Positions 1 through 64,000 of a stretch of DNA of 64,000 nt are shown here, one piece after another (the stretch's first letter is position 1; every line of letters starts with the position of its first letter). The notes beneath the pieces were generated by a model. That model was not told the DNA's origin and ran no database searches. It saw only the letters and a list, made by a program, of their open reading frames with translations. This stretch comes from Christensenellales bacterium (GTDB lineage Bacteria; Bacillota; Clostridia; Christensenellales; UBA1242): positions 5,669 through 69,668 of the forward strand of contig JBJFDC010000006.1 of assembly GCA_051889215.1 (NCBI GenBank), given 5' to 3'. Made by a program: the position numbers and the translations under genes.

Positions 1-371
1 GCGGGGTGAAGATAAAAATTTTTGTTCCAGGCATTGCCGACAAAAAATTGGTTAACATGGTGACAAAATCTCATTATGAGAGTGCAATTTCAAATGGCAT
101 TGAGATGTTGGAATTTGAAAAAGGGTTTATTCATTCAAAAAACATTCTTGTGGATAAGGCGACGATGCTTGTTGGCACAATAAACATTGATTATCGAAGT
201 TTTTTTCGAAATTTTGAATGCGCTGTCATTATCAAAAATTCAAACGCGGTTCAAGAACTTTTTGATGATTTCAAACAAATTGAAAAGCAGTGTAAAAAAG
301 TTGAGGCAAAAGATTTGCCTCGTCCAAACTTTTTTATCAAATTATTGAAACTCTTTGCTCCGGTTTTATAA
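1..371 (+). CDS. cls: cardiolipin synthase, C-terminal part (5' end lies outside the window)
   Basis: Translation carries a phospholipase-D HKD motif (HSKNILVD...GTINIDYRS). The frame is open to the window start. Confidence 0.8.
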   Translation, partial: GVKIKIFVPGIADKKLVNMVTKSHYESAISNGIEMLEFEKGFIHSKNILVDKATMLVGTINIDYRSFFRNFECAVIIKNSNAVQELFDDFKQIEKQCKKVEAKDLPRPNFFIKLLKLFAPVL

Positions 372-1127
372 TTTTATCAGATTAAAAACGTTTTTAATTT
401 TTTTGCTCAACGAGTTGGTTTCTGAAAGCGGAATTGGGTGCGAAAGATTGTCGTTTCCGAGTTCAATGGTCAGAGCGGGAATGTTTTGTTTCATTTCGCA
501 CCAATCGGAAAATCCGCCAAAACTCCCAGTGGTTTTGATTGGAACAAATCCAGAATAATGTGAAATTATGCTGGCAATTTGTCTGTCTTGTCCTTTGTTT
601 TTGCCATTCAAGAAATCGCCAAAATATATGACCTCACCTTTTGTGTGGAGGTTGAGAACAAGGCGGGGGTGGAGTCGTTTTGTGAAATTTGTGAGTGATA
701 GAGTTTCAATCTCACTTTCGGGATATGGACCAATATAATTTTCGTGATGAGGGTGAAAAAGATTGCTTTTTCCCTTTCCCCAATTTGCGTCAAAATTGAC
801 ATTTATGTCCACAAGGTTTGCATTTGCTTTAAACATTTTTTGATTGTCTTCCAAAACGATTTCGACCCCGTCAGGATTGACAACTGGCACAAACCAAATG
901 CCAAACTCATCGAAGTTGTATGCTTTAACCATCTCAAACCCCACTGCTGTTGAAACATATTCTCTTGCGTGGGTTGAAGAAGTGATCAGAATTTGAGGTT
1001 TTTCAAACTTTCCAAAGTGAAATGCGAAAATTGGCTTGTTTTTCACACTTTTGCCAATAATCAATCTGAAGTTCGCCTGATTTTTAATTTTTTTTACAAT
1101 GTTGTTCAAATCTTTGAAACTATCCAT
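366..1127 (-). CDS. M14-family zinc carboxypeptidase (gamma-D-glutamyl-meso-DAP peptidase-like)
   Basis: 253-aa ORF with SSTHAREYVS (HxxE zinc site) and VVNPDG motifs typical of M14 peptidases. It converges on cls and overlaps it by 6 nt. Confidence 0.7.
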   Translation of the reverse strand: MDSFKDLNNIVKKIKNQANFRLIIGKSVKNKPIFAFHFGKFEKPQILITSSTHAREYVSTAVGFEMVKAYNFDEFGIWFVPVVNPDGVEIVLEDNQKMFKANANLVDINVNFDANWGKGKSNLFHPHHENYIGPYPESEIETLSLTNFTKRLHPRLVLNLHTKGEVIYFGDFLNGKNKGQDRQIASIISHYSGFVPIKTTGSFGGFSDWCEMKQNIPALTIELGNDNLSHPIPLSETNSLSKKIKNVFNLIKL

Positions 1128-1205
1128 AATATATATTATGCTTTGTTGTGAAACAAAGAAACGGAATTGTTTTTGCTTTTTTTATGGCGTTTTTCCAGAA
1201 GAGTG

Positions 1206-1232
1206 TTGACATAGAAATGTTTGTGTGATAAT
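1206..1232 (+). promoter_or_regulatory. sigma-A-like promoter for the ABC operon
   Basis: TTGACA at 1206-1211 and TGtGATAAT (extended -10) at 1224-1232. The 15-nt spacer is short. Confidence 0.35.
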
Positions 1233-1283
1233 CTTTTTATGTTTTATGAAAGATAAAACAATTAGAATTTAATATTTTGACCC

Positions 1284-1312
1284 CCCTAATAAAAATTTAT
1301 TAGGGTCTTTTT
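1284..1312 (+). terminator. terminator-like hairpin inside the ABC-operon leader (possible attenuator)
   Basis: Perfect 10-bp stem CCCTAATAAA / TTTATTAGGG (1284-1293 / 1296-1305) followed by tcttttt. It lies between the putative promoter and the TTG start at 1350. Confidence 0.35.
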
Positions 1313-1349
1313 GCTTTCATAAAATAGATTTACAAAAGGAGAAACGCTT

Positions 1350-1685
1350 TTGATAAAGGTGAAAAATCTAACCAAATATTTCAAAATCTCAAAGCGCGAC
1401 AAGGGCTTTTGGGGTGCCATCAAGGGATTATTTGTCAGAAAAAAGATAATCAAAAAAGCACTCGATGGCGTGTCATTTGAAATTGCCGACGGCGAGATTG
1501 TTGGATATTTGGGACCAAACGGAGCAGGAAAAAGCACGACAATAAAAATTATGTGCGGGATTCTGACTCCAACGAGCGGAGCATGCGAGATTAATGGCTT
1601 TATCCCCTACAAGCAGCGCGAAAAATATGTCAAAAACATTGGCGTTGTGACAAAGGTGAATATTTTTTGGAGTTTGTCGCCATAG
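1350..1685 (+). pseudogene. ABC transporter ATP-binding protein, 5' fragment (authentic through 1649, then 11 nonsense-derived codons)
   Basis: RBS AAAGGAG sits 7 nt before TTG 1350. Walker A is GPNGAGKST. Homology ends at ...KNIGVV (codon ending 1649). The tail TKVNIFWSLSP is antisense of a permease gene. Confidence 0.85.
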
Positions 1686-2263
1686 ATGTTGAGTGGATAT
1701 TGACAAAGTTCTCTTCCGCCGTCAGTGAAAATATTAACAACTTCAATTCCGTCAATCGTGAATATCGCCCAAGACGCCCCGAGCATAAATAGTCCCAAAA
1801 ACACAACAACGCCACAAACACACATTCCGACAACAATCATCACTTTTCCAAATGTCCAAGCAAAATCTTGAATACACATTGCATAAATCAGTGTCGCAAT
1901 CGCAACAATGCATCGTCCAAATTTGGAAAGTTCAATATCGCAACATAGTGCCTGGTGAACAATCCCCCTTGGGCGGACAAGCATTCGGTCAACAGACCCG
2001 CTCTTGATGAAACTGGCAAATGTATCCATTCCGCGAAAGAAGCATTCGGTGAACGAGAAGGAAAACATGACGACGCCATATGTGAGCATAATTTGCTTGA
2101 AATTCCACCCTTCAACAACATTAAATCTTTCCATGAGCAGATAGATTGTGAGAAGCATGAGCACTGTGGTCAACATTTGCGCAAAGAACATCAGCGCAAG
2201 CGAAAGTTTGTATTGCAGTTGTTTTTTGATTTGCATTTTCATAAACGAAAAATATAGTTTCAT
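1650..2263 (-). pseudogene. ABC-2-type permease 2, N-terminal 204 codons (C-terminus displaced to 3738-3906)
   Basis: Multi-TM ORF. Family-like sequence ...YPLNIYGDKLQKIFTFV stops at 1650. The remaining 13 residues of the listed ORF are antisense of the ATPase gene. Confidence 0.8.
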
Positions 2264-3066
2264 CAGCCGCCTTGAACCTCCACTTTTTTTAGATTTAACT
2301 TAAACAAAAGTTTTCCGAGCAAAATTGTTGCAACAGTCCAGGCAATTTGAATTCCCAGTTGAATGGCAGACGATTTGATGTCAATGCTTCCGCAATATGT
2401 TCTGAAACACAAGTCATTGAGATATCTGAAAGGGAGATAATTCATGACATTTTGAAGCCAAACAGGCATGAGCGGAATTGGCAACATTGCTCCACTGCAA
2501 AACTGACTGATTGTCGCAAATATTGCAAATGTTCCGTTTGGTGTCATTGTCCGAAATAGCAGCGCATAACACAGCATTCCAAGCCCCGCAACCATGAAAC
2601 CTGCAACAACAAGCTCAATTAAAAACAATCCAAATGCACCCCAACTTGCTGGGAGCGAAAGTCTGATTGAAGAAGGAAGACAAAACGCAATAACAATGAG
2701 CGGCACCATTCGAAGGAGAGTTTTTGCAAGTCGTTCGGAATAGAGTGTTGCAAACCAGTTGTTATACAAACTCATGGGTCTAACCATTTCATAACTTATG
2801 TTGCCTTCAATAATGGCTTTGGTCATATCTTTGTTTTGTTGAAACAATCCAAAATACATGAAGAAACTTTGTTGCAGCCATAGATATGTAATCATTTGCG
2901 AATAAGAAAAGTTGTCAGGAACATTTCCCATGCGATAAAACGCGGTAAACAAAAGCACATACATAAAGCCAAAACAAATTTGTGTTGCAAGTCCAGCGAG
3001 TGCGGACACGCGATATTGCAAAGAGTTGATGAATTTGAGTTTGAAGATTGAAAAATATGTTCTCAT
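2263..3066 (-). CDS. ABC-2-type permease 1 (DUF990/ABC2_membrane_6-like; family recalled from memory)
   Basis: 267-aa polytopic membrane ORF. Its start overlaps the stop of the ATPase 3' fragment and its stop overlaps the permease 2 start (translational coupling). Confidence 0.7.
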   Translation of the reverse strand: MRTYFSIFKLKFINSLQYRVSALAGLATQICFGFMYVLLFTAFYRMGNVPDNFSYSQMITYLWLQQSFFMYFGLFQQNKDMTKAIIEGNISYEMVRPMSLYNNWFATLYSERLAKTLLRMVPLIVIAFCLPSSIRLSLPASWGAFGLFLIELVVAGFMVAGLGMLCYALLFRTMTPNGTFAIFATISQFCSGAMLPIPLMPVWLQNVMNYLPFRYLNDLCFRTYCGSIDIKSSAIQLGIQIAWTVATILLGKLLFKLNLKKVEVQGG

Positions 3067-3737
3067 ATTTCAAACTCCTGATAGAGTTTTGACATGATTT
3101 CTTCAAGTCCCAAATCTTCAACCTGAATGTCGACAACATCAAACTTTTTGCTGACGAAATTCGTGAATTTTGGCAAGTGAAACTCTCCGTGAGATTTATA
3201 TTTTGCTGTTTTGTCAATCACTTCGATAAGTTCATAACCTTCGAGCGAATAATCTTCATAATCTTTGGCATATTGAACGGTGAGAATTTTTTCTGTTCGA
3301 TATTTTTCTTTGATTTCAGAAAAATTGCCGTCATACAAGATTTTGCCTTTGCCGATGAGTATAATTCTGTTGGTTAGCGCTTCAATGTCGTTCATGTCAT
3401 GAGTTGTGAGAATGACGGTCACGCCGAGTTCTTTGTTAATCTTTTTAACAAACTCCCTCACCTGCAATTTGCTCACGGCATCAAGTCCGATGGTTGGCTC
3501 ATCGAGAAATAAGATTTTTGGGTCGTGAAGAAGTGAGCCCGCAAGTTCGCATTTCATTTTTTGTCCGAGTGACATTTGCCGAAGCGGAATGTCCAACAAA
3601 TCTTCAAGTTCGAGAGTTTCAGTCAACATTTTTAGTCTCTCTTCAAACTTGTCTTTTGGAATTTTGTAGACATCTTTCAAGAGATAATATGAGTCAATGA
3701 CAGGCACGTCCCAAAAGAGTTGCGACCTTTGTCCAAA
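3063..3737 (-). pseudogene. ABC transporter ATP-binding protein, 3' fragment (224 aa)
   Basis: Begins FGQRSQLFWDVPV. Carries the signature-like MSLGQKMK, Walker B ILFLDEPT and the H-loop TTHD. It has no Walker A. The 36 upstream residues of the listed ORF are antisense of the permease 2 C-terminus. Confidence 0.85.
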
Positions 3738-3906
3738 AATACCATATGCTTGTTTTAATGTTTTGCCTATGAAATATCTGTTTGGAATGGAAGGCGCAAC
3801 TTTGTGGAATGGGGCGCTCGCTCCCGTTTGGGGAATGCTGTTCATCGTTCCATGCTACATAATTTTTAGATTGAGTTTGCGCAAATACGAATCAAGCGGA
3901 ACATGA
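3738..3906 (+). pseudogene. ABC-2-type permease 2, orphan C-terminal fragment
   Basis: IPYACFNVLPMKYLFG...FRLSLRKYESSGT* looks like the canonical C-terminus of this permease family. It is followed directly by a terminator. Confidence 0.75.
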
Positions 3907-3913
3907 TTTTCAC

Positions 3914-3943
3914 AAAAAGGTCTTGCATTTGCAAGACCTTTTT
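3914..3943. terminator. bidirectional rho-independent terminator
   Basis: AAAAAGGTCTTGCA tt TGCAAGACCTTTTT, a perfect 14-bp stem with A/T runs on both sides. Confidence 0.8.
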
Positions 3944-3960
3944 ATGTCATAATATGATGA

Positions 3961-4152
3961 TTATTTTTCTTTGTGACAGTTGCACATTTTTTCGTAGGAT
4001 TTGCAAAAATGTGCGTCGCGAGTCCCTTGCTTTGTGATTTTGATTGCATCTTTGTCGCAAAGACAACCCTCAATGTTATGCACGCAGTCACAAACATCGC
4101 AACATACATCTGTTTTGAGTTTGGTTGGTGCTTTTGTGTTTACTTGTGTCAT
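3961..4152 (-). CDS. DUF1540-like cysteine-rich small protein
   Basis: 63 aa when started at MTQV, which is preceded by GGAGG. The Cys pattern CDVCDCVHN..C.C...I.I resembles DUF1540. Confidence 0.55.
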   Translation of the reverse strand: MTQVNTKAPTKLKTDVCCDVCDCVHNIEGCLCDKDAIKITKQGTRDAHFCKSYEKMCNCHKEK

Positions 4153-4238
4153 ATTTACCTCCAATTTTATTTTTTGCCACAATCAAACAATTATGCGAAA
4201 GTTTGATTGTTTTTTGTTTTTGAGGGCAAAATAGTTAT

Positions 4239-4613
4239 ATGTTGGACAAGCGAACTGAAATTATTTTGATGGCAATAAACAAAGAATGTCAAAGCGGCTC
4301 ATTTCAGGTGGTTGAGGTGAGCGATTTGATTGCTGCTCTTCCCAAAAAGTATTTGCCAGACCAAAACCTCGTCACACAATGTGTGAATGCATTGAGTCGA
4401 GAAGGTTATATTGAACTAAAATATCATGATAGCGAAGTGTTTTGTTTGTGTCCGCTCCCCAAAGGCAGAATGCTTTTTGAAAACAAAATTGAAAAGAAGG
4501 GCATGGCAAGACGTTATGTTTTGCTTTCGGTTCTTGGTCTTTTGGTGCTCACAATACTTTTGATTTTGACATCGTTTTGCGGTGTATTAATTTTTGAAAA
4601 GATATTCAAATAA
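4239..4613 (+). CDS. membrane-anchored winged-helix-like protein (paralog 1)
   Basis: 124 aa. The N-terminal ~90 aa is soluble and wHTH-like. A single C-terminal TM helix follows (VLLSVLGLLVLTILLILTSFCGVLIF). Confidence 0.45.
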   Translation: MLDKRTEIILMAINKECQSGSFQVVEVSDLIAALPKKYLPDQNLVTQCVNALSREGYIELKYHDSEVFCLCPLPKGRMLFENKIEKKGMARRYVLLSVLGLLVLTILLILTSFCGVLIFEKIFK

Positions 4614-4627
4614 ACCAAACAGAACGG

Positions 4628-4993
4628 GTGAAAATGTTAGATAAATATGAGAAAAAAGTTTTGATATACTTGATTGAAAATTGCTCAAAAAAACAGGTGT
4701 CTCTCATTCACAAGGAGGACATCATAAAAAATATGAGCAAAAATTTTGCTTTATCACTATCAACTTTGGACGATATTATGTTATCATTAGCAAAAGATAA
4801 TTACATTGATTATATCTCTTCTGACTCAAAAAAAGGTCCTGCCTATTGCATCACTCTAAAAAACAAGGCGCTGACATTCAACAAAGACCAGAAAAAACAA
4901 AAAAAATATGCCTATTTTTTAATTTTTCGAACCATTGGTCTTGCAATTTTGAGTTTTTTGGTGGGGATAATCTTAAAGGTGATATTCAGTTGA
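4628..4993 (+). CDS. membrane-anchored winged-helix-like protein (paralog 2)
   Basis: 121 aa with the same architecture as 4239-4613. Its stop overlaps the uvrB start (TGATG). Confidence 0.45.
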   Translation: MKMLDKYEKKVLIYLIENCSKKQVSLIHKEDIIKNMSKNFALSLSTLDDIMLSLAKDNYIDYISSDSKKGPAYCITLKNKALTFNKDQKKQKKYAYFLIFRTIGLAILSFLVGIILKVIFS

Positions 4994-6948
4994 TGGAAGA
5001 AAGAAAATTTGAGTTGGTTTCACACTTTATGCCTTCGGGCGACCAACCGCAAGCGATTGAAAGTCTTGTGGAAGGTCTTCGTGACGGGCTTAAGAATCAA
5101 GTGCTTTTGGGAGTCACTGGGAGTGGCAAGACTTTTACAATGGCAAATATCATAGAAAAAATCAACAAGCCAACTCTGGTTATTGCACACAACAAGACTC
5201 TTGCTGCCCAACTTTGCAACGAACTTCGCGAATTTTTTCCTCATAACAAAGTTGAGTTTTTTGTTTCATACTATGACTACTATCAGCCAGAGGCATACAT
5301 TGCCTCCTCTGATACATACATCGAAAAAGATATGTCGGTGAATGAGGAAATTGATAAGTTGCGTTCATCTGCCACTGCTGCACTTCTTGGGCGAAACGAC
5401 ACCATTGTTGTCGCCTCCGGTTCTTGCATATATGGTTTGGGCAATCCTCAAGAATATTTGTCTTTGCAACTATTTTATGAAAAAGGTCAAAAAATTGGGG
5501 TGAAGCAAGTCGTTCACGACCTCATTGGGATAAATTATGTTCGACAAGACGCGGGGCTTGTGAGAAATAGTTTTCGCTATAAAGGTGACACGCTTGAAAT
5601 CATGGGCTCAACAACAACCGATATTGGAGTTCGCATTGAATTTTTTGGCGATGAAATTGAACATATATATGAATTTGATGCCGTTTCGAAAAAAATTATC
5701 TCGGAATTAAGCGAGGTTTCATTTTTCCCTGCAACGCACTACACAGTTGGCTCAACAAGACTCAACAACGCTCTTTCCGAAATTGAAAAAGATGCCGAAA
5801 TTGAGGTTAAAGAGTTTGAAGAGCGCGGCAAACTCATTGAAGCACAGCGGCTCAAAGAGCGTGTTGCATATAATGTTGAAATGATTAGAGAACTGGGTTA
5901 TTGCAGTGGAATTGAAAACTATTCGCGATATTTTGATGGAAGAAAACCGGGTGAGCCGCCTTTTACTTTGCTCGATTATTTTCCAAATGGATTTTTGACT
6001 CTGATTGACGAGAGTCACATGACATTGCCTCAAATTCGCGGAATGTATAACGGAGACAGAGCGAGAAAAGAAAGTCTTGTTGAATACGGCTTTCGACTCA
6101 AGGCAAGCTTCGACAATCGTCCACTCAATTTTGACGAGTTTTCATCAAGACTTGGACAAACAATTTATGTTTCTGCAACACCTGGGGACTATGAAAAAAA
6201 TTTGTCGGATAACACTGTTGAACAACTCATTCGTCCGACTGGGCTTTTGGATCCTGAAATCGAAGTGTTGCCAACAAATGACCAAATTGCAGTGCTTATG
6301 GACAGAATAAAAGAAGTCACAAAACGAAATGAGCGCGTTCTTGTGACAACTCTAACAAAAAAAATGGCGGAAAGTTTGACGACATATCTTTGCGAGCATG
6401 GACTCAAAGCAAAATATATGCACTCTGAAATTGACACAATTGAGAGGGTTGAGATAATAAACTCATTGAGAAGTGGAGAATTTGATGTTTTGGTTGGCAT
6501 AAATCTTTTGCGTGAAGGTCTTGACCTTCCAGAGGTGAGCATGGTTGCAATTCTCGATGCAGACAAAGAGGGATTTTTGCGCAGCGAAGGTGCGCTCATT
6601 CAAACCATTGGGCGTGCTGCCCGCAATGAGCATGGCAAGGTGTTGATGTTTGCCGATGTTCAAACCGGCAGCATGAAGCGCGCGATTGACGAAACAAATC
6701 GCCGCAGAACTTTGCAAATGCAATTTAATGCCGAGCATGGCATAACGCCAAAAACCATAAAGAAAAATGTTGTCAATTCACTGCAAATAACAAAGCGTAA
6801 TCCAATCGGCAAGATAAACAAACAAGACATTCCAGAACAAATTGAAAAATTAAAAGCATTGATGAAAATTGCTTCAAATTCTTTGGATTTTGAAAATGCC
6901 ATCAAGCTTCGCGACGAAATCAATGCTCTAAAAAAGAGGTTAAACTGA
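4993..6948 (+). CDS. uvrB: excinuclease ABC subunit B
   Basis: MEERKFELVSHFMPSGDQPQAI, GVTGSGKT, the helicase motifs and the C-terminal UVR domain are all present. The listed ORF start at 4846 is an upstream in-frame extension. Confidence 0.95.
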   Translation: MEERKFELVSHFMPSGDQPQAIESLVEGLRDGLKNQVLLGVTGSGKTFTMANIIEKINKPTLVIAHNKTLAAQLCNELREFFPHNKVEFFVSYYDYYQPEAYIASSDTYIEKDMSVNEEIDKLRSSATAALLGRNDTIVVASGSCIYGLGNPQEYLSLQLFYEKGQKIGVKQVVHDLIGINYVRQDAGLVRNSFRYKGDTLEIMGSTTTDIGVRIEFFGDEIEHIYEFDAVSKKIISELSEVSFFPATHYTVGSTRLNNALSEIEKDAEIEVKEFEERGKLIEAQRLKERVAYNVEMIRELGYCSGIENYSRYFDGRKPGEPPFTLLDYFPNGFLTLIDESHMTLPQIRGMYNGDRARKESLVEYGFRLKASFDNRPLNFDEFSSRLGQTIYVSATPGDYEKNLSDNTVEQLIRPTGLLDPEIEVLPTNDQIAVLMDRIKEVTKRNERVLVTTLTKKMAESLTTYLCEHGLKAKYMHSEIDTIERVEIINSLRSGEFDVLVGINLLREGLDLPEVSMVAILDADKEGFLRSEGALIQTIGRAARNEHGKVLMFADVQTGSMKRAIDETNRRRTLQMQFNAEHGITPKTIKKNVVNSLQITKRNPIGKINKQDIPEQIEKLKALMKIASNSLDFENAIKLRDEINALKKRLN

Positions 6949-16100: not shown

Positions 16101-16175
16101 TGGTACCTCTAAGCGGACTCGAACCGCTGATTTCGCCGTGAGAGGGCGACGTCTTAACCGCTTGACCATAGAGGC
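16101..16175 (-). tRNA. tRNA-Glu (anticodon CTC), CCA encoded
   Basis: Hand-folded cloverleaf: GCCTCTA TG GTCAAGCGGTTAAGAC G TCGCC CTCTCAC GGCGA AATC AGCGG TTCGAGT CCGCT TAGAGGT A CCA (75 nt). Positions 1 and 72 form a G-U pair. Confidence 0.85.
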
Positions 16176-54964: not shown

Positions 54965-55093
54965 AAAGTCGGCATTAATTATATATAATTAAATTAAATA
55001 TTTATGCAAATAATAATGTAAATAATTTGACAACAAAAGATTAAAAATTATAAAATTCTTCATATAGAACAAAACTTTGTAGGGGAGTTATTG

Positions 55094-58000
55094 ATGAAAA
55101 AGTTTTTTGCACTATTTGCTTTGATATTGATTGCGGTCATGCCGGTTTGTTTGGTTGGCTGCAAGAGTAAATATGACAACTTGTCGATTGAAATGGAGTC
55201 GAGTTATGAAATTGTGCTCGGCGAGAGTGAAAACGACTCAATCACAATTGAAGCAAAAGTGACGGGGAACAGTGATGAAAATGGTGGAAGATTGAGTTTT
55301 TCGCCGGATAATGACAAACTTGTCAAAATCTCCCAAGACTACAAAAATGGAATAAACTACATAACTCTCAAAGCACTTGCGCCTGGAAAAGTCAACATTG
55401 AAGCGAGAACACTTGAAGGTGGTGTGACAAAAAATTTTGTCGTCAACATAATTCAACCAATCAAAAACTTTTCTGTCAAATCTGGACAATTCACTGTTGT
55501 TCGTGGAGGGGAATGGAAGATTGATGTTGAGAAACATTTGAATCTTGAACCAACAAACACAACTCAAACTGATTTTGTTGTTTCTTTTGCGGCAAATCAA
55601 GACATCGAAGGAATTCAAATTGAAGACAATGTTTTGAAAGTGTCAAAAGATTCAAATCAAGACGAAATCGTTTTGAATGTTCAATCGTCGGCAAATTCCG
55701 ATATTGCGCCAAAAGAAATCAAACTCGTTGTCTTGAATGAGTTCGTTGAGATTGACAAGCAAACTCAATCAACTCAGTCGAAGTTTGATGATGGAGATAT
55801 TTTAGTTTTTGAAAAAAATGAATCAATGCTCACATATGACAAACTCGAAGAGCTCAACATAATTTCCAACTTAATTTCAGAAAGTGAAAAAGAAATTGTT
55901 GTCCGCGTTTATTCTTCAAGAGAAGTCGATGTAAACCATCAAAGCAACTCAAGACTTTCAATCAAAAAACTTTCGTCAATAAAGACATATCAAGCAAATG
56001 GACAAGTTGAATACACGGATTTTTTCTTCTCTGTTCGATTTGCTGACACTGTTTCTTCTGGAGCAAAAACAAGTTTGAGTTTTGTTGTGAGTTATGTTGG
56101 ATTTGATTTAAACAAACAACTCTTGCCGATTTCAGTTGCATATGAACTCGCGCCAAAAACAATTCTCGTCAACGATCAAGACGACTTGAATGAGTTCACT
56201 CTTTACAACTTTTATTCAATGGCAAAAAAAGGGCAGAAACTTCAATTTGGAGTTCTGCCAACTTCTGTTTCTCCAAACAACTCAAAAATGATGCTTCTCA
56301 ACAAAGATAATCTCGTTGATGCCTTCGAGTATCTTCAATTTTTCAGAAACAATGGCGAGGAATTGTTTGAGGGCGATGAAATAAATGTCAATGAAGTTAT
56401 TTATGCAAGAGCAAGAAGCGGCGTAAAAACTGGTTCTTTTGAAGTTTTGCTTCAGACAAAATTTGTTGACCCACAAACAAATGCTTCTCTTTCAAAAGTG
56501 TTGAAATTCAATGTTCTTTCTGGAATAACAGAAATGAGATTTGTTGATGACGAGCAAATCAATCTCCAACTCAATTCAACACAAAACTCTGCTGAAATCT
56601 TGCTTGACGTCAGCCCGGCAAATATTGATATAACAAAAATTCACGTTGAAGAAATTGACGGATTGTCTTTTTCGACAATGACGACAAAGTCTCAAACAGA
56701 AGAGGGCTTGACTCTTCGATTTGTCGCTTATGCCCAAAAGGTTGGGAACTACAAAATAAAGGTTTATTCTGAAAACGGAATTGAAATAACAAAACAAATC
56801 AAAGTAATCAACGCTCTTGAGAATGTCGTTTTGTCTGCGCCAAGCCCAAACGAAAATTCGGTTGTTGGAGACAGGCAAATTGTTGACGGTGAACTCAGGT
56901 CTGTTGCGGTGTCGCTGGGCGGTGCGATTGCTCTCGAAGAAAACATTTCGCCAAGTGATGCAAATTATCGCGTGGAATTTTCGTATTTCGAAACCGAAAG
57001 TTTTCCAGAGTTTGCTCTATCGAGTTATGATTATCCAAACTTGGTCACTTCAACATCTGTTGGAGTGTTGGACTATTCTCAACTTTTGGGATACAAAAAA
57101 ATTGTTGCTCTGAAGGTTGGATATTCTGTTGTTCGCGCAAAATATATTCCAGTTGGAATTGTTAATAATGAAGAAACTGAACTTGAGCCGATTTACAAGT
57201 ATTTTGTTGTTCAAGGATACAAGCCAATTCGTTCGGTTGTGATGTCGTCAAACTATGCAACCCTCTACTCTCTGAAAAGTGTTGGTATTTTCAACAAAGA
57301 TCTCACAATGACAAAAGTTCAACTTTCAGTTTTCCCAATTGATGCAACATATGCAAACAGCATTGTTTGGGATTATGACAAAAGTGGCGAATACTTTCAG
57401 TTCGACGAAGAAAATTTGATTGTTTACGCAACAAAACGCTATGCTGGAACAATTTCAATTCTTGCAACAATAAAAGAACTGAACAGAACTTATACTCAAA
57501 CTCTTTCAATAACAATTCTTGATGCAAAAACTGTCAGCGATATCAGTGTCAACGGCATCGGAGATAGCATCTATATTGAGAACACTGACGACACGACAAA
57601 GACATTTGTCATCAATGCTGTGGCTTTCCCAAACGATGCATATAACACAAAACTCAAATATGACTTTATTGACAAAGCGGGAAATATTATTGGCGACATC
57701 AAAATATCTGCTGATGGAGTCATGACAATTCCTGCTGGTGTTGGACTCAGCGGATATGTCAGAATTGCTGCTGAAGATTGTTTTCAAGAGAACTCTTTGA
57801 CGGGTGAGTATCAACCTGTCGGAATTGAGGGCAAAAACATCATTCTCATTCCAACAACCATTGCAAATGGAACGAGCAAAGACACAGCAATAAGAATCAA
57901 CTCAAAAGAAGAATTGCAAAATATTGACACAAAAAAGCACTACAAAATTTACTGTGACCTTGATGTCAGTGGAATCAGTTTTGATAACTTTTCTGGCGGA

Positions 58001-61000
58001 CTATATGGATATAATTCACAAAATCGAGTTGTTTTGAGTGGATTTGATAGAACATTTATTCAAACACTTTCAAAAACTGGAATGCTTGAGGATTTGGAAA
58101 TTGATTGCGACATTGAAATGTTTGGTGAAAATGGCGTTTTGGTTGGAAAAAATGAAGGACACATAAACAATGTTGTGGCAAAAGGCAACTGGAAAGGCGC
58201 ATTGAGCATTGTTGCAACCAATTTTGGCAAGATTTACAATGTGACAAGCGAAGTGATTTTTGACGGAGAAAAATTTGCAGGAATTGCACTCTCAAATTCG
58301 GGTGAAATATACAACTGCTTCTTTATGGGTTCAATCACCGCATCAAATCAAGCGGCCGGCATCACACTTTCAAATGCTGGAACATTGGAAGTTTGTGCAA
58401 CTCTTCTTGTTGGCGAAAATTCAATCAAACTCGCATCAGTTTTTGATGCTGGGGCAAGACTTGCGGGAGTTTGTGTCGAAAACTTGGAAGGCGGCAAAAT
58501 TTTGCGCTCATATATTCACTCATACAAATCTAATTCATCGTTTGCCGATTCAGACTTCGCCTTTGTTGGTGGGTTTGTTCACACAAATTCGGGATCAATT
58601 CAAAAAAGTTTTTCTGCTCTGCATTCAACTGATTTGGTGACGGGCTTTGTTTACATCAACAATTCTTCAGCAGGCATTGAAAACTGCTTTTCAGACACAA
58701 CTTTTGCAAATTTCAACTATGGAACAATAAAAAAATGTTTTTGTGTTCTTGATGACGAAAGACTCAACTCTGCGATTAGTTGTTATTCTGGCACAGCCGC
58801 AACCGAAAAAACAGTTGCCGATTGGCTCAAGACTGATTGGGATATTTCTTGCACATATGAAAAAGCAACCATATGGAAAATATATCTTGACTCACAAAAT
58901 CCATATCTTCGTGAAATTTCTGCCGAGGTTAAACCAGAAAGCATGAATATTTCGATCAAAGAGCCAAAAAATTCAAATTCATATTTAAAACTCAATGAAA
59001 ATCAAGTTTTGCTCTATCGTTATGAATCTCAAGTTTCCCCAATGACTTCGGCTGAAAAAGCAAAACTCAATCAATATAACAGCATTTCAATTTATGATTT
59101 GCTCACTTTTGAAATTTTGCCATACAATGCAAGTTCGTCGCCAGACATGTTCTATTATTCGCTTTCCGAAGGCAGTGCGCTTTCAATGAGCGGACTCAAC
59201 ATCAATGTTTTGGGACTTGGAAAACAAACGCTCACAATCACTTCAAAACTCAATCCTGAATTGACATTCTCGCTTGATATATTCACGAGTTATCCAATCA
59301 GAGATTTCAATATTTTTGCATCTTCATCGAGTCTTGACCCAACTGGCGCACTAACTGATGGCTCGATAATTTATCTCAAACGCACCTACACTCAAGCACT
59401 CTATTCAAAAGTTTCGTCTTCAATTATTCTTGTTGATAGAGAAATCTCATTCAAGATGCTTGACCTCAAAATTGACTATGCTAGTGAAATCGATGCGAAA
59501 GAACTGGGACTTTACCTTTTGAGATTTGATGAGAAACAAACCATTGACAACTTTGTTTGTTCATTGGATTTCAGCGGCATAACCTTGTATGAACAGTTTG
59601 AAGAAATAAAACCAATGCTTCCAAATTATTTCTCAAGAACTTTCAAGGTTGTTGTCTATAATGGTGCCGAAAACATGTCCGTTTCTCAATATAGTTTTGA
59701 AATGGAACCGATTGACACAATCGAACTTGGTGTTCAGTTAAAAACCGATGTTTCTGATGAGGTTTTGAATGAAAAATACAACAACAAGGCAATAAAATAC
59801 GAAATTTATAATATGTCGGGTGTAAATCTCACTGACGACTATTTCTTGATTGAATATTCAAACGCAAGTGAACCAATTATTGAAAAAAATGCAGCAGGAG
59901 AGCCAACTGGCTTTAGAACGTTTGATATAAAACTCACAATCAGTCTAAAGAACAGAACAACTCAAATAAGCGGCGACTATTATATCCGCATTTATGCAAA
60001 CGAAGAAGAATTTACCACATTTGCCATTGCTCCAATTGATGTTTCAATCAAACTTCTTCCTCAATCACTTCAAAGAATTGATTATTCTCACTATTATGGA
60101 GAGTCGACAGTAAAAGGTGACAAAGAAGTTCTTGTTGCAAACACTTCCCCATCAAATGCTTTGGCGCCTGGTCAAGTTGGACTTCTTGAAGTTAACTTGT
60201 TCCCAACATATAGTGAAATATCCCATGTTGAAATTGAATCCATTCCAAATCAAAACAGCACTGTAAAACTTCAACTCTATCAAAGAAGTGGAACAGGACT
60301 TGCTGAATTCACAATGGTTCAACAAAATTCAGATTACAACAGAACTGAAAACGGCATTGTTGTTGGATACACAATGATTTCGAATGGAACAATTTATGTG
60401 AAGACTCAAGTTGCTTCAGACATCCCCGAAGAACTTACTTTTGAACTCGTTGTTCGTGCATACAAAACTAAAGACGACCCAAATCCAATCGAACAACATG
60501 TTTTCCTTGCCGCAAAATTTATTCCATCAGCTCGCGTTGAGGTCGAAGGACAAAAAGACTACATTGTCATGGGTCGCGGAACATCAAAAGACATGACCAT
60601 CACGGTTGTTGGCGAAGGCGATGTTGAAATATACGCAAATGACGAAGCAGACAAGCAAAAAAATATCTATGAAAGAGCATATGTCGGTCAAAAAACATTG
60701 ATTGAGACCAAAAATCTCGGAACACAAAATCAATATGTTTATAGTTGTCCAATTTTTGTCGGCTCAAAGTTCACAAACGACAAAAATGATGTTGTTAGAA
60801 TTGAAGTTGTTGTCTCGCGCGAGGTTAACGGTGTTCGTGAAAAGAAAACAACAATTCTTGTTGTTCGCGTTCTTGATTTTGTTGTCAACAAAGTCGTTCT
60901 CACAAACGGAACAGACAAATATAGTTCAAAGGTCAGCGTGAAGACAAAATTTGACTTTTCGTATGACATTTCTCAACCTCAAGCGTTCACAAATGACGAT

Positions 61001-64000
61001 GACGATATAAAAGCGGTTGACGACCTGAATAACAAAATTAATGCCTTCAAAAAATATCAATATTTCACAACTTTCGGCGATAAGGGTTCGGCATATACAT
61101 ACGAAAAATCATTTATGTATGTTGATGAAAATGGCGACCACTCTTTTGCAATCTATAATGACGATGGATATGCTTTTGCCCAGAATGAATACATAAAGTT
61201 TGAAGACAACTTTGACTCGAACAAAAATTATTTGTTCACCACGGCGACTGGACTTAAAACTGGAATTCAAAAAATAAAACTCAAAGTTTCATCGTCAAGC
61301 ACGACGAACTCGACTGAAATATATTCCATAACCTATGAATTTGATGTCGTTGTGACAAACTACTCAAACGAAGACAAACCAATGCCAATCGGCTCACTTG
61401 AAGACTTCAATGCAATATTTGAACAAAACGATGCACAAGATTATATTCTCACAAGCGATATTGAAATTGGTGACCATGTGCTTTATTCCGACACTTCAAA
61501 AATCAGAAGTCTTGACGGAAATAATCACAAAATCATAATAACTTCACTAAATCTTGGTGAAAATCAAACTTTGGACGTCGCTCTCTTTAACACAATCAGC
61601 GAAATAACAACAATCAAAAATCTCATCGTTGATTATCAAATTGGCGAAATAAATGTTAATTCGGACCAATTTTCAAGCATTAGCGTTGCGGGACTTGCTT
61701 TGAATAATGATGGAATTGTCACAAACACTCATGTGCTTTCATCGCAAACCCACCCAACTCAAACAACTGGCGGAATTCAAATTTCGTCATCTCTCAGTCA
61801 ATCAGCACAAATTCAAATGGCAGGATTTGTTCTCAACAACTCGGGTTCAATAACGAATTCAAGAGTGGGAGACACGAGTGTTTCAATTGTTGACACAAAT
61901 GGCAGCAAGAGTGAAAAACCACTCAAAGTGTTTGCTCTTGTTGGTCAGGACCAAATGGCAGGATTTGTTCTCAACAACTCGGGCATTATTTCCGCTTCAT
62001 ACGCAAAAAACATCACAATAATAAACAATTCCAAATTCCAATCAAACAATCAAACAGCGGGATTTGTTCTCAACAACCAAGCAGGCGCAAAAATCACAGG
62101 GTGCTATGTTCGTGGCGTTGAAGGACTTGACCAAAGCGATGTTTATGTTCAAGGAATGGGCATTGAATCATCATTTGAAGTTGCGGGTTTTGTTTATGAT
62201 AATTTGTCATATATTTCAGATTGTTATAGCAATATAAAACTATATAAAGAACTGCCAAGCGAAAACAGAAAAGGCGTTAGAAGTGCTGGATTTGTTTATA
62301 GAAATGAATTGGGCGCTCAAATTGTTTCAAGTTTGGCTCTCTCAAAAATCGTTGAAGACGACACAAGCCAAGAGTATTTCTGCGGCGTTGATGGTGAAAA
62401 TCAATCAAATAATTTTGGAACAATCATATATTCTTATTATTATTCAAAGTTTGACAAACTCCAAAGTGTTGCTGACGGCGCGGAGATGTTGAATGCGACT
62501 GCGGTCAAACAACAAGATAGTTATTATGCTTTCTCTTTTACAACTCCTGGCGCACTTGACGGAATGTGGATGATGACAAGCCGCGGACCTGAATTGGTTT
62601 CGGCAAACAACATCGCTTTGTCAAAGAGATATTTGGTGAGTGTTGAAGAAGATAAATATGATGTTGCATATGTTCCAAACTACGAATATGGTTCAATTCA
62701 AAACCCAATTCTCATTCGTTCGGCAACAGAATTCAATGAGGTTTTTGGCACAAGCAAAGATGACTCAATAAAAAAATATTTTGACCAAACACCAAAACAA
62801 GCATTTGGAAATTATAGATTAATCAACGACATTGACTTGGCGGATTTGTCGCTTGGAGGAAATGAAACAACAACACTTTCTTCAACGGGCTATTCCCTAA
62901 TGCGCAAAACTGACGCATTTGGTTCTGTTGTTGGAAGTGGCGTTCTCGAAGGCAACGCAATGACAATTTCAAATCTTGATTTTTCAATCACGGATACCGA
63001 CCAAACATATTTTGGATTGTTTGCATCAATCAAGAATGGGGCAGTTGTTAAAAACCTCAACCTCACAGTCAAAGAGATTTCGGCGTCAAGTGTAAATTAT
63101 GTTGGCGCGCTTGCAGGATATGTTGAAAATTCAAAGATTATTAATGTTTCTGCCGACATTGCTCAAAATCAACAAATTGCACTCGTCCAAGGTCGAAATA
63201 TTGTTGGCGGTGTTGTCGGAGCGGTTGCTGGAACAAGCGAACTAAACAATTTGAGTTCAAGCATATCAGCGCATTCGACATATGTTGATGGCAAACAAAT
63301 CAACGAAGTTAATCGAAACGGAGAAAATTTTGTCCAAGTTGCAGTGCCAAATCTTCCGGCAGAAGGAACAGGACTTAATGCAACAGTTTCAATCGCGGGT
63401 GGTGTTGCCGGTGCAGTTTTTGCAAAAGATATAAACGATTCATCAAACAATAATCTTGCGACAATCGACAATGCACAAGTCAAAAAAATAAAAGCAAGCG
63501 GAAAATTCACAATCAGTGCAAAAATCGCCGGCGGACTGATTGGATATGTTGGAAAAACAACATATCTTCATGACGCATGGCTTGCAATTTCAGAAGGACA
63601 AAATATAAATGCTTATGAAAATGGTGTTGCCGGTGGGGCAGTTGGACTCAGTTATGGAAAACTTTCACACATTCGAATTGAGCATAATGACATTCAAGAC
63701 TACTCGTCTTCTGCTGAAAATGTTCAAAAAGAAATCGAGGCAAATGTAAAAGATTATTACACGAACAAGTCAAATGAAAGAAAAACATATGAAAATATGT
63801 TCACTTCAACAAATCAAGGTCAGACCATTGGTGGAATTGTTGGCATCATGAACGGCGGTGTTCTTGAGGACAGTTATACAAAACTTGATGTCATTTCAGA
63901 CTCCGCATACAACCTTGGTGGCGTTGTCGGAATTGTTAAAAACCAAAAATACGAAATCAGCAGGGTATATTCATTCTCAAACGTTCAATCAAAATCAACC
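55094..64000 (+). CDS. giant surface lipoprotein (at least 2,969 aa, 3' end outside the window) with Ig-like domains and three GLUG-like beta-helix repeat modules
   Basis: RBS AGGGGAG, then ATG 55094. Signal peptide MKKFFALFALILIAVMPVCLVGC with a lipobox. I translated the whole frame by hand to 64000 and found no stop. It is absent from the supplied ORF track because it has no stop in the window. Confidence 0.85.
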   Translation, partial: MKKFFALFALILIAVMPVCLVGCKSKYDNLSIEMESSYEIVLGESENDSITIEAKVTGNSDENGGRLSFSPDNDKLVKISQDYKNGINYITLKALAPGKVNIEARTLEGGVTKNFVVNIIQPIKNFSVKSGQFTVVRGGEWKIDVEKHLNLEPTNTTQTDFVVSFAANQDIEGIQIEDNVLKVSKDSNQDEIVLNVQSSANSDIAPKEIKLVVLNEFVEIDKQTQSTQSKFDDGDILVFEKNESMLTYDKLEELNIISNLISESEKEIVVRVYSSREVDVNHQSNSRLSIKKLSSIKTYQANGQVEYTDFFFSVRFADTVSSGAKTSLSFVVSYVGFDLNKQLLPISVAYELAPKTILVNDQDDLNEFTLYNFYSMAKKGQKLQFGVLPTSVSPNNSKMMLLNKDNLVDAFEYLQFFRNNGEELFEGDEINVNEVIYARARSGVKTGSFEVLLQTKFVDPQTNASLSKVLKFNVLSGITEMRFVDDEQINLQLNSTQNSAEILLDVSPANIDITKIHVEEIDGLSFSTMTTKSQTEEGLTLRFVAYAQKVGNYKIKVYSENGIEITKQIKVINALENVVLSAPSPNENSVVGDRQIVDGELRSVAVSLGGAIALEENISPSDANYRVEFSYFETESFPEFALSSYDYPNLVTSTSVGVLDYSQLLGYKKIVALKVGYSVVRAKYIPVGIVNNEETELEPIYKYFVVQGYKPIRSVVMSSNYATLYSLKSVGIFNKDLTMTKVQLSVFPIDATYANSIVWDYDKSGEYFQFDEENLIVYATKRYAGTISILATIKELNRTYTQTLSITILDAKTVSDISVNGIGDSIYIENTDDTTKTFVINAVAFPNDAYNTKLKYDFIDKAGNIIGDIKISADGVMTIPAGVGLSGYVRIAAEDCFQENSLTGEYQPVGIEGKNIILIPTTIANGTSKDTAIRINSKEELQNIDTKKHYKIYCDLDVSGISFDNFSGGLYGYNSQNRVVLSGFDRTFIQTLSKTGMLEDLEIDCDIEMFGENGVLVGKNEGHINNVVAKGNWKGALSIVATNFGKIYNVTSEVIFDGEKFAGIALSNSGEIYNCFFMGSITASNQAAGITLSNAGTLEVCATLLVGENSIKLASVFDAGARLAGVCVENLEGGKILRSYIHSYKSNSSFADSDFAFVGGFVHTNSGSIQKSFSALHSTDLVTGFVYINNSSAGIENCFSDTTFANFNYGTIKKCFCVLDDERLNSAISCYSGTAATEKTVADWLKTDWDISCTYEKATIWKIYLDSQNPYLREISAEVKPESMNISIKEPKNSNSYLKLNENQVLLYRYESQVSPMTSAEKAKLNQYNSISIYDLLTFEILPYNASSSPDMFYYSLSEGSALSMSGLNINVLGLGKQTLTITSKLNPELTFSLDIFTSYPIRDFNIFASSSSLDPTGALTDGSIIYLKRTYTQALYSKVSSSIILVDREISFKMLDLKIDYASEIDAKELGLYLLRFDEKQTIDNFVCSLDFSGITLYEQFEEIKPMLPNYFSRTFKVVVYNGAENMSVSQYSFEMEPIDTIELGVQLKTDVSDEVLNEKYNNKAIKYEIYNMSGVNLTDDYFLIEYSNASEPIIEKNAAGEPTGFRTFDIKLTISLKNRTTQISGDYYIRIYANEEEFTTFAIAPIDVSIKLLPQSLQRIDYSHYYGESTVKGDKEVLVANTSPSNALAPGQVGLLEVNLFPTYSEISHVEIESIPNQNSTVKLQLYQRSGTGLAEFTMVQQNSDYNRTENGIVVGYTMISNGTIYVKTQVASDIPEELTFELVVRAYKTKDDPNPIEQHVFLAAKFIPSARVEVEGQKDYIVMGRGTSKDMTITVVGEGDVEIYANDEADKQKNIYERAYVGQKTLIETKNLGTQNQYVYSCPIFVGSKFTNDKNDVVRIEVVVSREVNGVREKKTTILVVRVLDFVVNKVVLTNGTDKYSSKVSVKTKFDFSYDISQPQAFTNDDDDIKAVDDLNNKINAFKKYQYFTTFGDKGSAYTYEKSFMYVDENGDHSFAIYNDDGYAFAQNEYIKFEDNFDSNKNYLFTTATGLKTGIQKIKLKVSSSSTTNSTEIYSITYEFDVVVTNYSNEDKPMPIGSLEDFNAIFEQNDAQDYILTSDIEIGDHVLYSDTSKIRSLDGNNHKIIITSLNLGENQTLDVALFNTISEITTIKNLIVDYQIGEINVNSDQFSSISVAGLALNNDGIVTNTHVLSSQTHPTQTTGGIQISSSLSQSAQIQMAGFVLNNSGSITNSRVGDTSVSIVDTNGSKSEKPLKVFALVGQDQMAGFVLNNSGIISASYAKNITIINNSKFQSNNQTAGFVLNNQAGAKITGCYVRGVEGLDQSDVYVQGMGIESSFEVAGFVYDNLSYISDCYSNIKLYKELPSENRKGVRSAGFVYRNELGAQIVSSLALSKIVEDDTSQEYFCGVDGENQSNNFGTIIYSYYYSKFDKLQSVADGAEMLNATAVKQQDSYYAFSFTTPGALDGMWMMTSRGPELVSANNIALSKRYLVSVEEDKYDVAYVPNYEYGSIQNPILIRSATEFNEVFGTSKDDSIKKYFDQTPKQAFGNYRLINDIDLADLSLGGNETTTLSSTGYSLMRKTDAFGSVVGSGVLEGNAMTISNLDFSITDTDQTYFGLFASIKNGAVVKNLNLTVKEISASSVNYVGALAGYVENSKIINVSADIAQNQQIALVQGRNIVGGVVGAVAGTSELNNLSSSISAHSTYVDGKQINEVNRNGENFVQVAVPNLPAEGTGLNATVSIAGGVAGAVFAKDINDSSNNNLATIDNAQVKKIKASGKFTISAKIAGGLIGYVGKTTYLHDAWLAISEGQNINAYENGVAGGAVGLSYGKLSHIRIEHNDIQDYSSSAENVQKEIEANVKDYYTNKSNERKTYENMFTSTNQGQTIGGIVGIMNGGVLEDSYTKLDVISDSAYNLGGVVGIVKNQKYEISRVYSFSNVQSKST
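61814..61983 (+). repeat. perfect 32-bp direct repeat inside the giant ORF (copies at 61814-61845 and 61952-61983)
   Basis: CAAATGGCAGGATTTGTTCTCAACAACTCGGG occurs twice, 138 bp (46 codons) apart, encoding QMAGFVLNNSG. A third diverged copy lies near 62050. Confidence 0.85.

Follow-up and report, generated by a model that had tools for sequence, protein, structure and literature searches.

A recent, strain-specific inversion that very likely inactivates an ABC transporter operon in a wild-boar gut lineage of Christensenellales

An exact and real inversion of 2,090 bp interrupts an ABC transporter operon in the window, by which is meant the whole 64-kb stretch of DNA that was analyzed, a short-read NCBI MAG contig annotated 'Christensenellales bacterium'. 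The inversion is recent and restricted to one lineage, which is present in two samples. Very likely it is an illegitimate (non-programmed), strain-specific event that arose once and inactivates the operon. Because every related strain examined is intact, it looks like a recent one-off knockout rather than a programmed switch.

Structure of the inverted operon

The features of the locus, in window coordinates, are as follows.

1206..1232, plus strand: putative promoter, with a -35 element TTGACA (1206-1211), a 15-nt spacer and an extended -10 element TGTGATAAT (1224-1232), read by eye
1284..1312, plus strand: terminator-like leader hairpin, CCCTAATAA/TTATTAGGG followed by TCTTTTT
1350..1648, plus strand: N-terminal fragment of the ABC ATPase, codons 1-100 with Walker A, still behind the promoter (ORF, restoration, Pfam)
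1649..3738, no strand: inverted segment (BLAST; junctions aligned with the sequence of 10 uninverted relatives; restoration)
1649..1657, plus strand: left arm of an inverted repeat of 9 bp, GACAAAGGT, directly abutting the left junction (simulation, p=0.003)
1649..2263, minus strand: N-terminal fragment of permease 2 (PF06182), codons 1-204, antisense to the promoter
2263..3066, minus strand: permease 1, ABC-2 type, 267 aa, an intact ORF that is inverted and without a promoter
3063..3738, minus strand: C-terminal fragment of the ABC ATPase, codons 101-324, with Q-loop FGQRSQ, signature SLGQK, Walker B ILFLDEP and H-loop TTHD
3725..3733, plus strand: right arm of this repeat, ACCTTTGTC, on the inner side of the right junction and 5 nt away from it
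3739..3906, plus strand: C-terminal fragment of permease 2, IPYACF...KYESSGT, the last 56 codons and stop (ORF, restoration)
3914..3943, no strand: intrinsic terminator, consisting of an A-run, the stem GGTCTTGC/GCAAGACC and a T-run (fold)

Alignment to uninverted relatives places the junctions at 1648/1649 and 3738/3739. The breakpoints are ambiguous by a single nucleotide (T/A), so that 1648..3739 is equivalent to 1649..3738, and no bases were lost or gained at either junction. One breakpoint lies within the Q-loop codons of the ATPase (GTTGT/TTTTGG) and the other within permease 2 (TTTGTC/ATACC). When the segment is re-inverted, site A reproduces L003-L006, L010 and L012 base for base over ±40 nt, the one exception being a C/T polymorphism in L010. 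At site B, all relatives match across the junction, with a common C/T polymorphism 24 nt downstream.

Reverse-complementing the segment yields an operon that encodes an ABC ATPase of 324 aa and two permeases, of 267 and 260 aa. In the present orientation, ORF 1350..1685 on the plus strand contains 100 codons of the ATPase, with Walker A (GPNGAGKST) among them, and ends in 11 junk codons, while ORF 3063..3845 on the minus strand begins with 36 junk codons and then encodes the ATPase from FGQRSQ to its end. Walker A is thus separated from every other ATPase motif, and GPNGAGKST, FGQRSQ, SLGQK, ILFLDEP and TTHD occur in one polypeptide only after restoration. Similarly, ORF 1607..2263 on the minus strand contains 204 codons of permease 2 and then 14 junk codons. 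The restored ATPase matches ABC_tran (PF00005, E=1.3e-26), permease 1 matches ABC2_membrane (PF01061, E=2.9e-7, residues 19-218) and the restored permease 2 matches ABC2_membrane_6 (PF06182, E=7e-37) at 2-229 of the 229 profile positions. The restored 260-aa permease is also identical to a protein, P0121, that is present on 18 contigs. A search of the transporter against NCBIfam reached no equivalog or curated cut-off.

A preliminary description of this DNA had proposed that an inversion splits the ATPase and permease 2, that its reversal restores both genes in frame, and that all three genes are at present promoterless or truncated. The ORF layout and the retranslation of the reversed interval, which gave continuous ATPase and permease ORFs, bear this out. 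The segment proposed there, 1650..3737, also restores continuous ORFs of 324, 267 and 260 aa, although comparison with the relatives shows it to be 1 nt off at each end. The proposed order of promoter, ATPase, two permeases and terminator is upheld by the ORFs and by the terminator fold; its promoter, with the 15-nt spacer, stays putative.

From its sequence, 1206..1232 would be the promoter of the operon. A consensus promoter scan, which requires a spacer of 16-18 nt, did not list it because its spacer is only 15 nt. The leader hairpin is a possible attenuator; it had no match in Rfam, where the whole 64-kb window gave only a tRNA. At the other end of the operon, the terminator stem (3919-3926/3931-3938) is an 8-bp, G+C-rich helix that extends to 13 bp with the A-run and T-run, and the 55-nt stretch 3896-3950 that contains it folds at -19.5 kcal/mol. 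This terminator, which a consensus terminator scanner did not list, is probably bidirectional.

Occurrence in relatives and in wild-boar samples

The operon is uninverted in 13/13 related loci (L003-L015), which share 90-98% nucleotide identity and include the GTDB species representative; those with a stated source are from the human gut. In the nine loci with enough flanking sequence (L003-L011), the neighbourhood is the same as in the window, with an M14 peptidase on one side of the operon and uvrB-uvrA on the other. When PFK, Spo0A and the M14 peptidase were looked up by exact match, to follow collinearity beyond about 8 kb, only a 4-kb contig or no record was returned. More widely, Clostridia and Christensenellales MAGs very commonly encode homologous ATPases, 323-363 aa in length, and in protein clusters of 210 to 255 members the sampled members all read through the junction positions, except for the MAG's own fragments. 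A 25-mer of the inverted junction had 0 matches in 185,579 species genomes and JGI metagenome contigs.

The inverted allele was found in only one strain, represented by the window MAG and by assemblies of the wild-boar faecal metagenomes SRR30616845 and SRR30616848. These runs are from separate samples and are PCR-free Illumina PE150 libraries (PMC13169683). They belong to PRJNA1158959 (SRR30616763-851), together with 87 other runs, and the assemblies of that project are GCA_051866235 to GCA_051940925. The two samples may share a herd or site and so may lack epidemiological independence. The assemblies, from Logan, are k-mer based and were made with a different assembler from that of the MAG. 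In SRR30616845, contig L002 alone spans both junctions; in SRR30616848, L018 spans the left junction and L001 the right. Their identity to the window is 100% or 99.98%, and the 100%-identical contigs suggest that the MAG originated in the wild-boar project. A single base, at window 5420, distinguishes L001 from the window, so that the two are not one consensus.

In both samples only the inverted path was assembled, and no assembly shows the forward orientation of the strain. The exact strain-specific permease 1 protein occurs only on L001 and L002, both of which are inverted, and the restored, forward form of the strain-specific ATPase is in no assembly and is absent from a collection of 15 billion proteins. 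The ends of the Logan contigs (window 1681, 1688 and 3756) fall neither at the branch points expected of a mixed-orientation population (1649 and 3768) nor at a known SNP at 3763, and they carry no information on population heterogeneity.

In the operon, the substitutions private to the strain are 11 synonymous and 4 non-synonymous, with 0 stops and 0 frameshifts; examples of SNPs private to the strain are window 1582C, 2868 and 3227. Their dN/dS is about 0.1 (P=2e-5 against neutrality). The 11:4 ratio and the lack of stops indicate that the inversion is recent, and the low dN/dS with neither stops nor frameshifts indicates that the operon was functional for almost the whole of the private branch. 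Low dN/dS and intact frames would also be expected if reversible flipping had kept the operon in use.

Mechanism and competing explanations

The ancestral order would have been promoter, leader, ATPase, permease 1, permease 2 and terminator. The lineage comes from the wild-boar gut and belongs to an uncultured Christensenellales species, represented in GTDB by UMGS1470. In it, breaks would have occurred in the Q-loop codons of the ATPase and in permease 2, and the intervening piece would have been rejoined in reverse with no base lost or gained. The promoter would now drive only a 100-aa Walker-A stub, and the remainder of the ATPase, permease 1 and most of permease 2 would lie antisense, behind a bidirectional terminator. 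With the stub alone driven by the promoter and the rest antisense behind the terminator, the transporter should be null. Candidate mechanisms are the rejoining of two breaks and a double template switch, with microhomology of about 1 nt. Several observations are those expected of illegitimate recombination, in which junction homology is about 0-10 nt, namely the 1-nt microhomology, the adjacent 9-bp inverted repeat, the failure to find an IS element or recombinase, and the confinement to a single lineage. No IS element was found, and a Pfam scan of 43 ORFs in the 64-kb window found no integrase, resolvase, transposase or recombinase domain, in agreement with the preliminary description. The neighbourhood consists of core housekeeping genes (uvrABC, mfd, dnaE, pfk, spo0A).

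Only 1 nt of inverted homology is common to both breakpoints, and the two sites share no sequence similarity when aligned there. The longest repeat at the segment ends is the perfect 9-bp inverted repeat already noted in the preliminary description, both arms of which are present; no inverted repeat longer than 9 bp flanks the segment. By simulation, this repeat lies nearer to the two breakpoints than expected at random (p≈0.003), and it may have helped to bring the two break sites together. Its arm at site A is broken in the sublineage of L007, L009 and L011. A crossover within the repeat would leave TTTTG on the wrong side, frameshift both genes and fail to reproduce the relatives; the loss of frame had been anticipated. 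The 5-nt offset of the repeat fits no simple model that was tried. Models of staggered cutting by a recombinase or gyrase, in which the overlaps were 4-8 nt and mismatch repair was either included or left out, were worked through by hand and did not reproduce the observed junctions.

The preliminary description had left three explanations unranked: a fixed inactivating inversion, an intragenic switch and an assembly error. The recent, fixed inactivating inversion is now favoured by the 13/13 uninverted relatives, the single lineage, the assembly of this orientation alone in two separate samples, the lack of a repeat at the crossover and the failure to find a recombinase among the ORFs scanned in the window. 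Assembly error is disfavoured, and the switch has gained no positive support. If the true genome were forward and the MAG contig mis-joined, this could be attributed to the short-read origin of the contig, and the exact 253-aa M14 peptidase ORF, as delimited, is indeed absent from the contig index. However, the Logan assemblies of two separate runs cross both junctions (L002 in one, L018 and L001 in the other), which makes such an error very unlikely indeed. Moreover, L001 represents a different consensus, the segment ends contain no repeat as long as a k-mer, and the libraries were PCR-free.

A programmed inverton, in which an invertase encoded elsewhere flips 1649..3738 to turn the operon ON or OFF and the wild-boar strain was caught OFF, would account for the perfectly conservative and reciprocal exchange, for three intact reading frames with a dN/dS of about 0.1 and for a 9-bp inverted repeat adjoining both ends beyond chance. 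Furthermore, gut bacteria are known to carry invertons that are intragenic or partly intergenic (10.1101/2023.03.11.532203). This reading is nevertheless improbable. All 13 relatives are forward and every assembly of the strain is inverted; the crossover lies outside the inverted repeat, where an exchange inside it would have shifted both frames and not matched the relatives; the sites are dissimilar at the breakpoints; the repeat is not conserved, its site A arm being missing in L007, L009 and L011; and no recombinase domain was found in the 43 ORFs scanned across the 64-kb window. Serine recombinases use a 2-bp core and tyrosine recombinases an overlap of 6-8 bp, for which the 1 nt shared here is too little. 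A more elaborate form, an operon-scale reversible ON/OFF inverton with a hypothetical invertase, asymmetric and nearly homology-free sites, and the GACAAAGGT arms serving for binding and not for crossover, is similarly improbable; if true, it would explain why the broken genes stayed intact and under purifying selection. Demonstration of both orientations in reads would make the case considerably more interesting. A one-off inversion catalysed at accidental sites by a site-specific recombinase, a topoisomerase (gyrase) or a nuclease recognising GACAAAGGT is unlikely. It fits the exactly reciprocal exchange, with neither loss nor gain, and the non-random position of the same 9-mer near both breaks. 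However, the cuts would be asymmetric to the 9-mer, at distances from it of 0 nt and 5 nt, the staggered-cut models predict other junctions, and no candidate enzyme was identified. The outcome, a fixed knockout, would be the same, and only the molecular cause would differ.

Comparison with known systems

Microhomology-mediated inversions have been described quite generally. Schofield, Agbunag and Miller reportedly described, in 1992, illegitimate inversions in the lac region of E. coli that arose spontaneously and independently of RecA at short inverted repeats or microhomology. Like those, the inversion described here is probably a one-time and unprogrammed event, with very short homology and no recombinase found, an inverted repeat of about 9 bp at the ends and a gene disruption fixed in the lineage. 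In contrast to the lac inversions, the exchange lies outside the repeat, adjoining one arm directly and separated from the other by 5 nt, it is perfectly reciprocal with an ambiguity of 1 nt, and it was found in a natural gut population and not in a selection experiment. The inversion provides a clean natural example of a small, exactly reciprocal and homology-poor inversion circulating in the gut strain of a wild animal, and the transporter that it would knock out is widely conserved.

The locus was also compared with Hin/Gin, FimB/E, the invertible promoters of Bacteroides and the invertons of Chanin et al. (10.1101/2023.03.11.532203), which are intragenic or partly intergenic. As in these invertons, the inversion is exact, both ends are inside coding sequence, genes are truncated and ORF calls changed, and the host is a gut bacterium. 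It differs in that the crossover lies outside any inverted repeat, the ORFs scanned in the 64-kb window include no invertase domain and the related strains do not share it, and in that the segment spans three genes of an operon rather than a promoter or part of one gene. For those searching for invertons, restored frames and a nearby short inverted repeat are insufficient to call a switch, which also requires comparison with relatives and counts at read level.

The restored operon has the architecture of ABC-2 type transporters in which a DrrA-like ATPase is combined with two permeases (PF00005 + PF01061 + PF06182), although in the wild-boar strain, unlike those, it is broken. In GenBank, the proteins MGN1162455-57 of the MAG carry the names 'ABC transporter permease' and 'AAA family ATPase'; they are fragments, or a stranded gene, of the operon that the inversion broke.

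The split operon and its breakpoints

The ABC transporter operon is divided by an inversion that separates both the ATPase gene and the permease 2 gene into two parts, arranged as follows.

Parts of the split operon in the window
1350..1685, plus strand: ORF with the N-terminal part of the ABC ATPase, 100 residues that include Walker A (GPNGAGKST), followed by 11 junk codons
Within ORF 3063..3845, minus strand: remainder of the ABC ATPase
3066..2263, minus strand: permease 1, intact, 267 aa, after the ATPase remainder
2263..1650, minus strand: 204 codons of permease 2, after permease 1
3739..3906, plus strand: last 56 codons of permease 2, with a strong hairpin terminator directly 3'

Each detail of this anatomy in the preliminary description (ORFs, strands, fragments and terminator) was reproduced. 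Its claim that reversal restores the genes also held, as continuous ORFs of 324, 267 and 260 aa were obtained when the interval was reverse-complemented and then translated. In Pfam, the restored ATPase was assigned to ABC_tran (E=1e-26), permease 1 to ABC2_membrane (E=3e-7) and the restored permease 2 to ABC2_membrane_6 (E=7e-37), the last over the entire profile. In an NCBIfam profile search for a substrate, the ATPase was DrrA-like and nothing reached the cut-off. The deposited annotation covers window 1607-3845 with MGN1162455.1, MGN1162456.1 and MGN1162457.1. Two of the deposited proteins were entered like normal genes, under the names 'ABC transporter permease' and 'AAA family ATPase', but are fragments left by the inversion, chimeras of 218 and 260 aa whose termini are junk.

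The restored 260-aa permease 2 is identical to a protein on record, P0121, found on 18 contigs of public assemblies. Thirteen relatives were compared, comprising ten P0121 loci, two contigs from human-gut metagenomes and UMGS1470, which represents the species in GTDB. Against these, the window aligns in three blocks at 90-98% identity, of which the outer two (1..1648 and from 3739 on) are forward and the middle one (1648..3739) is reversed. The ancestral site in the ATPase Q-loop codons (site A) reads GGCGTTGT up to the breakpoint and TTTTGGACAAAGGTCGC beyond it, and that in permease 2 reads CACCTTTGTC followed by ATACCATATGC. Inverting 1649..3738 (2,090 bp) matches both sites base for base, with no nucleotides gained or lost and a 1-nt T/A as the sole ambiguity. 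Judged by the relatives' junctions, the interval proposed initially, 1650..3737, misses each end by 1 nt, but the encoded proteins are the same.

With this arrangement, the promoter and leader would now drive only a Walker-A stub, and the remaining coding sequence would lie antisense behind a terminator that probably acts in both directions, so that the strain is expected to lack a functional transporter. The 5' leader (1233-1349, plus strand) contains a terminator-like hairpin at 1284-1305 followed by TCTTTTT, which may be an attenuator. In the minimum free energy fold, a longer-range stem encloses this hairpin, and its 5' arm contains a 5-codon mini-ORF, ATGTTTTATGAAAGATAA, at approximately 1239-1256. 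An Rfam search returned no match for the leader.

Distribution and age of the inverted allele

In the comparison with relatives suggested by the preliminary description, the operon was forward in all 13, and the inverted allele was confined to one strain. The window and the nine relatives with sufficient flank share the gene order M14 peptidase (minus strand), operon, small DUF1540-like gene, two small genes, uvrB and uvrA. The 90%-identity protein clusters have 210-255 members, and all those sampled are continuous across the junctions except the fragments of this MAG. The inverted left junction, searched as a 25-mer, was absent from 185,579 species genomes and from the JGI metagenome contigs, collections in which the ancestral junction is present.

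The inverted allele is known from the window MAG (NCBI, 'Christensenellales bacterium'; 75,305-bp contig, proteins MGN1162455-57) and from Logan contigs of SRR30616845 and SRR30616848. One contig from SRR30616845 equals window 823..3756 at 100% identity and covers both junctions. From SRR30616848, one equals 763..1688 at 100% identity and covers the left junction, and another equals 1681..6729 with a single mismatch at 5420 and covers the right. Both runs belong to PRJNA1158959, and each represents one faecal sample from wild boar; the libraries were PCR-free (Illumina PE150), and the study's authors assembled sample by sample with metaSPAdes (PMC13169683). The identical contigs suggest that the window MAG belongs to the same project.

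Relative to all relatives, the operon carries 15 private substitutions, 11 synonymous and 4 non-synonymous (dN/dS ~0.1; P=2e-5 under neutrality), with no stops or frameshifts. Thus, purifying selection acted on the operon along practically the entire private branch, and the inversion is recent. Private substitutions at 1345 (T>C) and 1347 (G>C) abolish an ATG from which some gene callers start the ATPase in relatives (MVLIKV..., 326 aa). This loss may be without effect, because the TTG at 1350 is better spaced from the GGAG ribosome-binding site.

Origin of the inversion

An artefact of assembly or library is very unlikely as the source of the inversion, because a second assembler recovered both junctions from two separate libraries, one resulting contig has a one-base difference from the window elsewhere, and a search of the segment ends found no repeats near k-mer length. 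A reversible switch would also fit the purifying selection and intact frames and so keeps a slight chance. Invertons are defined by inverted repeats containing the crossover, a site-specific recombinase, coexisting orientations and, usually, a conserved site (10.1101/2023.03.11.532203), and none of the features testable in the window and its relatives was found. Homology at the crossover is 1 nt, and the two sites aligned at the breaks show no similarity. A single repeat lies nearby, with arms GACAAAGGT at 1649-1657 and ACCTTTGTC at 3725-3733 that both fall inside the segment, one flush with its break and the other 5 nt away. As previously stated for the frames, a crossover within this repeat would not restore them; it would frameshift both genes and yield a sequence different from that of the relatives. 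The earlier report of no recombinase gene was borne out, with no recombinase, integrase or transposase domain in 43 ORFs scanned across the window, a core chromosomal region (uvrABC, mfd, dnaE, holA, pfk, spo0A, murB, whiA). Additionally, one sublineage (L007, L009 and L011) has a degenerate arm at site A, with Q-loop codons (e.g., L007 ~6527) that read GGGCAACGGT in place of GGACAAAGGT, so the repeat is restricted to part of the species, including the inverted lineage. This strain's own version of permease 1 was seen on no contigs but the inverted Logan contigs matching window 823..3756 and 1681..6729, and the strain's forward-form ATPase was not found in a 15-billion-protein collection. Of the three explanations originally offered, assembly error and a switch thus give way to an inactivating inversion that is real, recent and lineage-specific. 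It is an ordinary type of mutation with unusually clean documentation, and a switch is not demonstrated.

Such an inversion could have arisen from two flush breaks that were resealed with the intervening segment turned round or, alternatively, from a double template switch with ~1 nt of microhomology. Staggered-cut and repeat-crossover models did not reproduce the observed junctions, nor did they account for the 5-nt offset. The 9-bp repeat is itself not rare, as 2.4 kb contains 42 inverted pairs of at least 9 nt. Its position is unusual, since among position pairs drawn at random with a 2,090-bp spacing only 0.3% have a repeat of at least 9 bp within ±15 nt of both ends, and it is therefore suspected of having helped to bring the two sites together.

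Other features of the window

The stretch from the operon to uvrB contains three small conserved genes that are syntenic in all relatives, and a tRNA gene is located further along the window.

Additional genes
3961-4182, minus strand: small conserved gene
4239-4613, plus strand: small conserved gene
4634-4993, plus strand: small conserved gene
16104-16175, minus strand: tRNA gene; no other Rfam match passed the gathering threshold across the 64 kb of the window

One of the small genes encodes a Cys-rich product with weak similarity to DUF1540 (E=0.0055, under the Pfam cut-off), and the 124-aa and 119-aa proteins had no Pfam or NCBIfam match. Lastly, a single ORF of at least 2,990 codons (55031-64000, plus strand) starts with a lipoprotein-like signal, MKKFFALFALILIAVMPVCLVGC, and runs past the window end; it probably encodes a giant surface protein.
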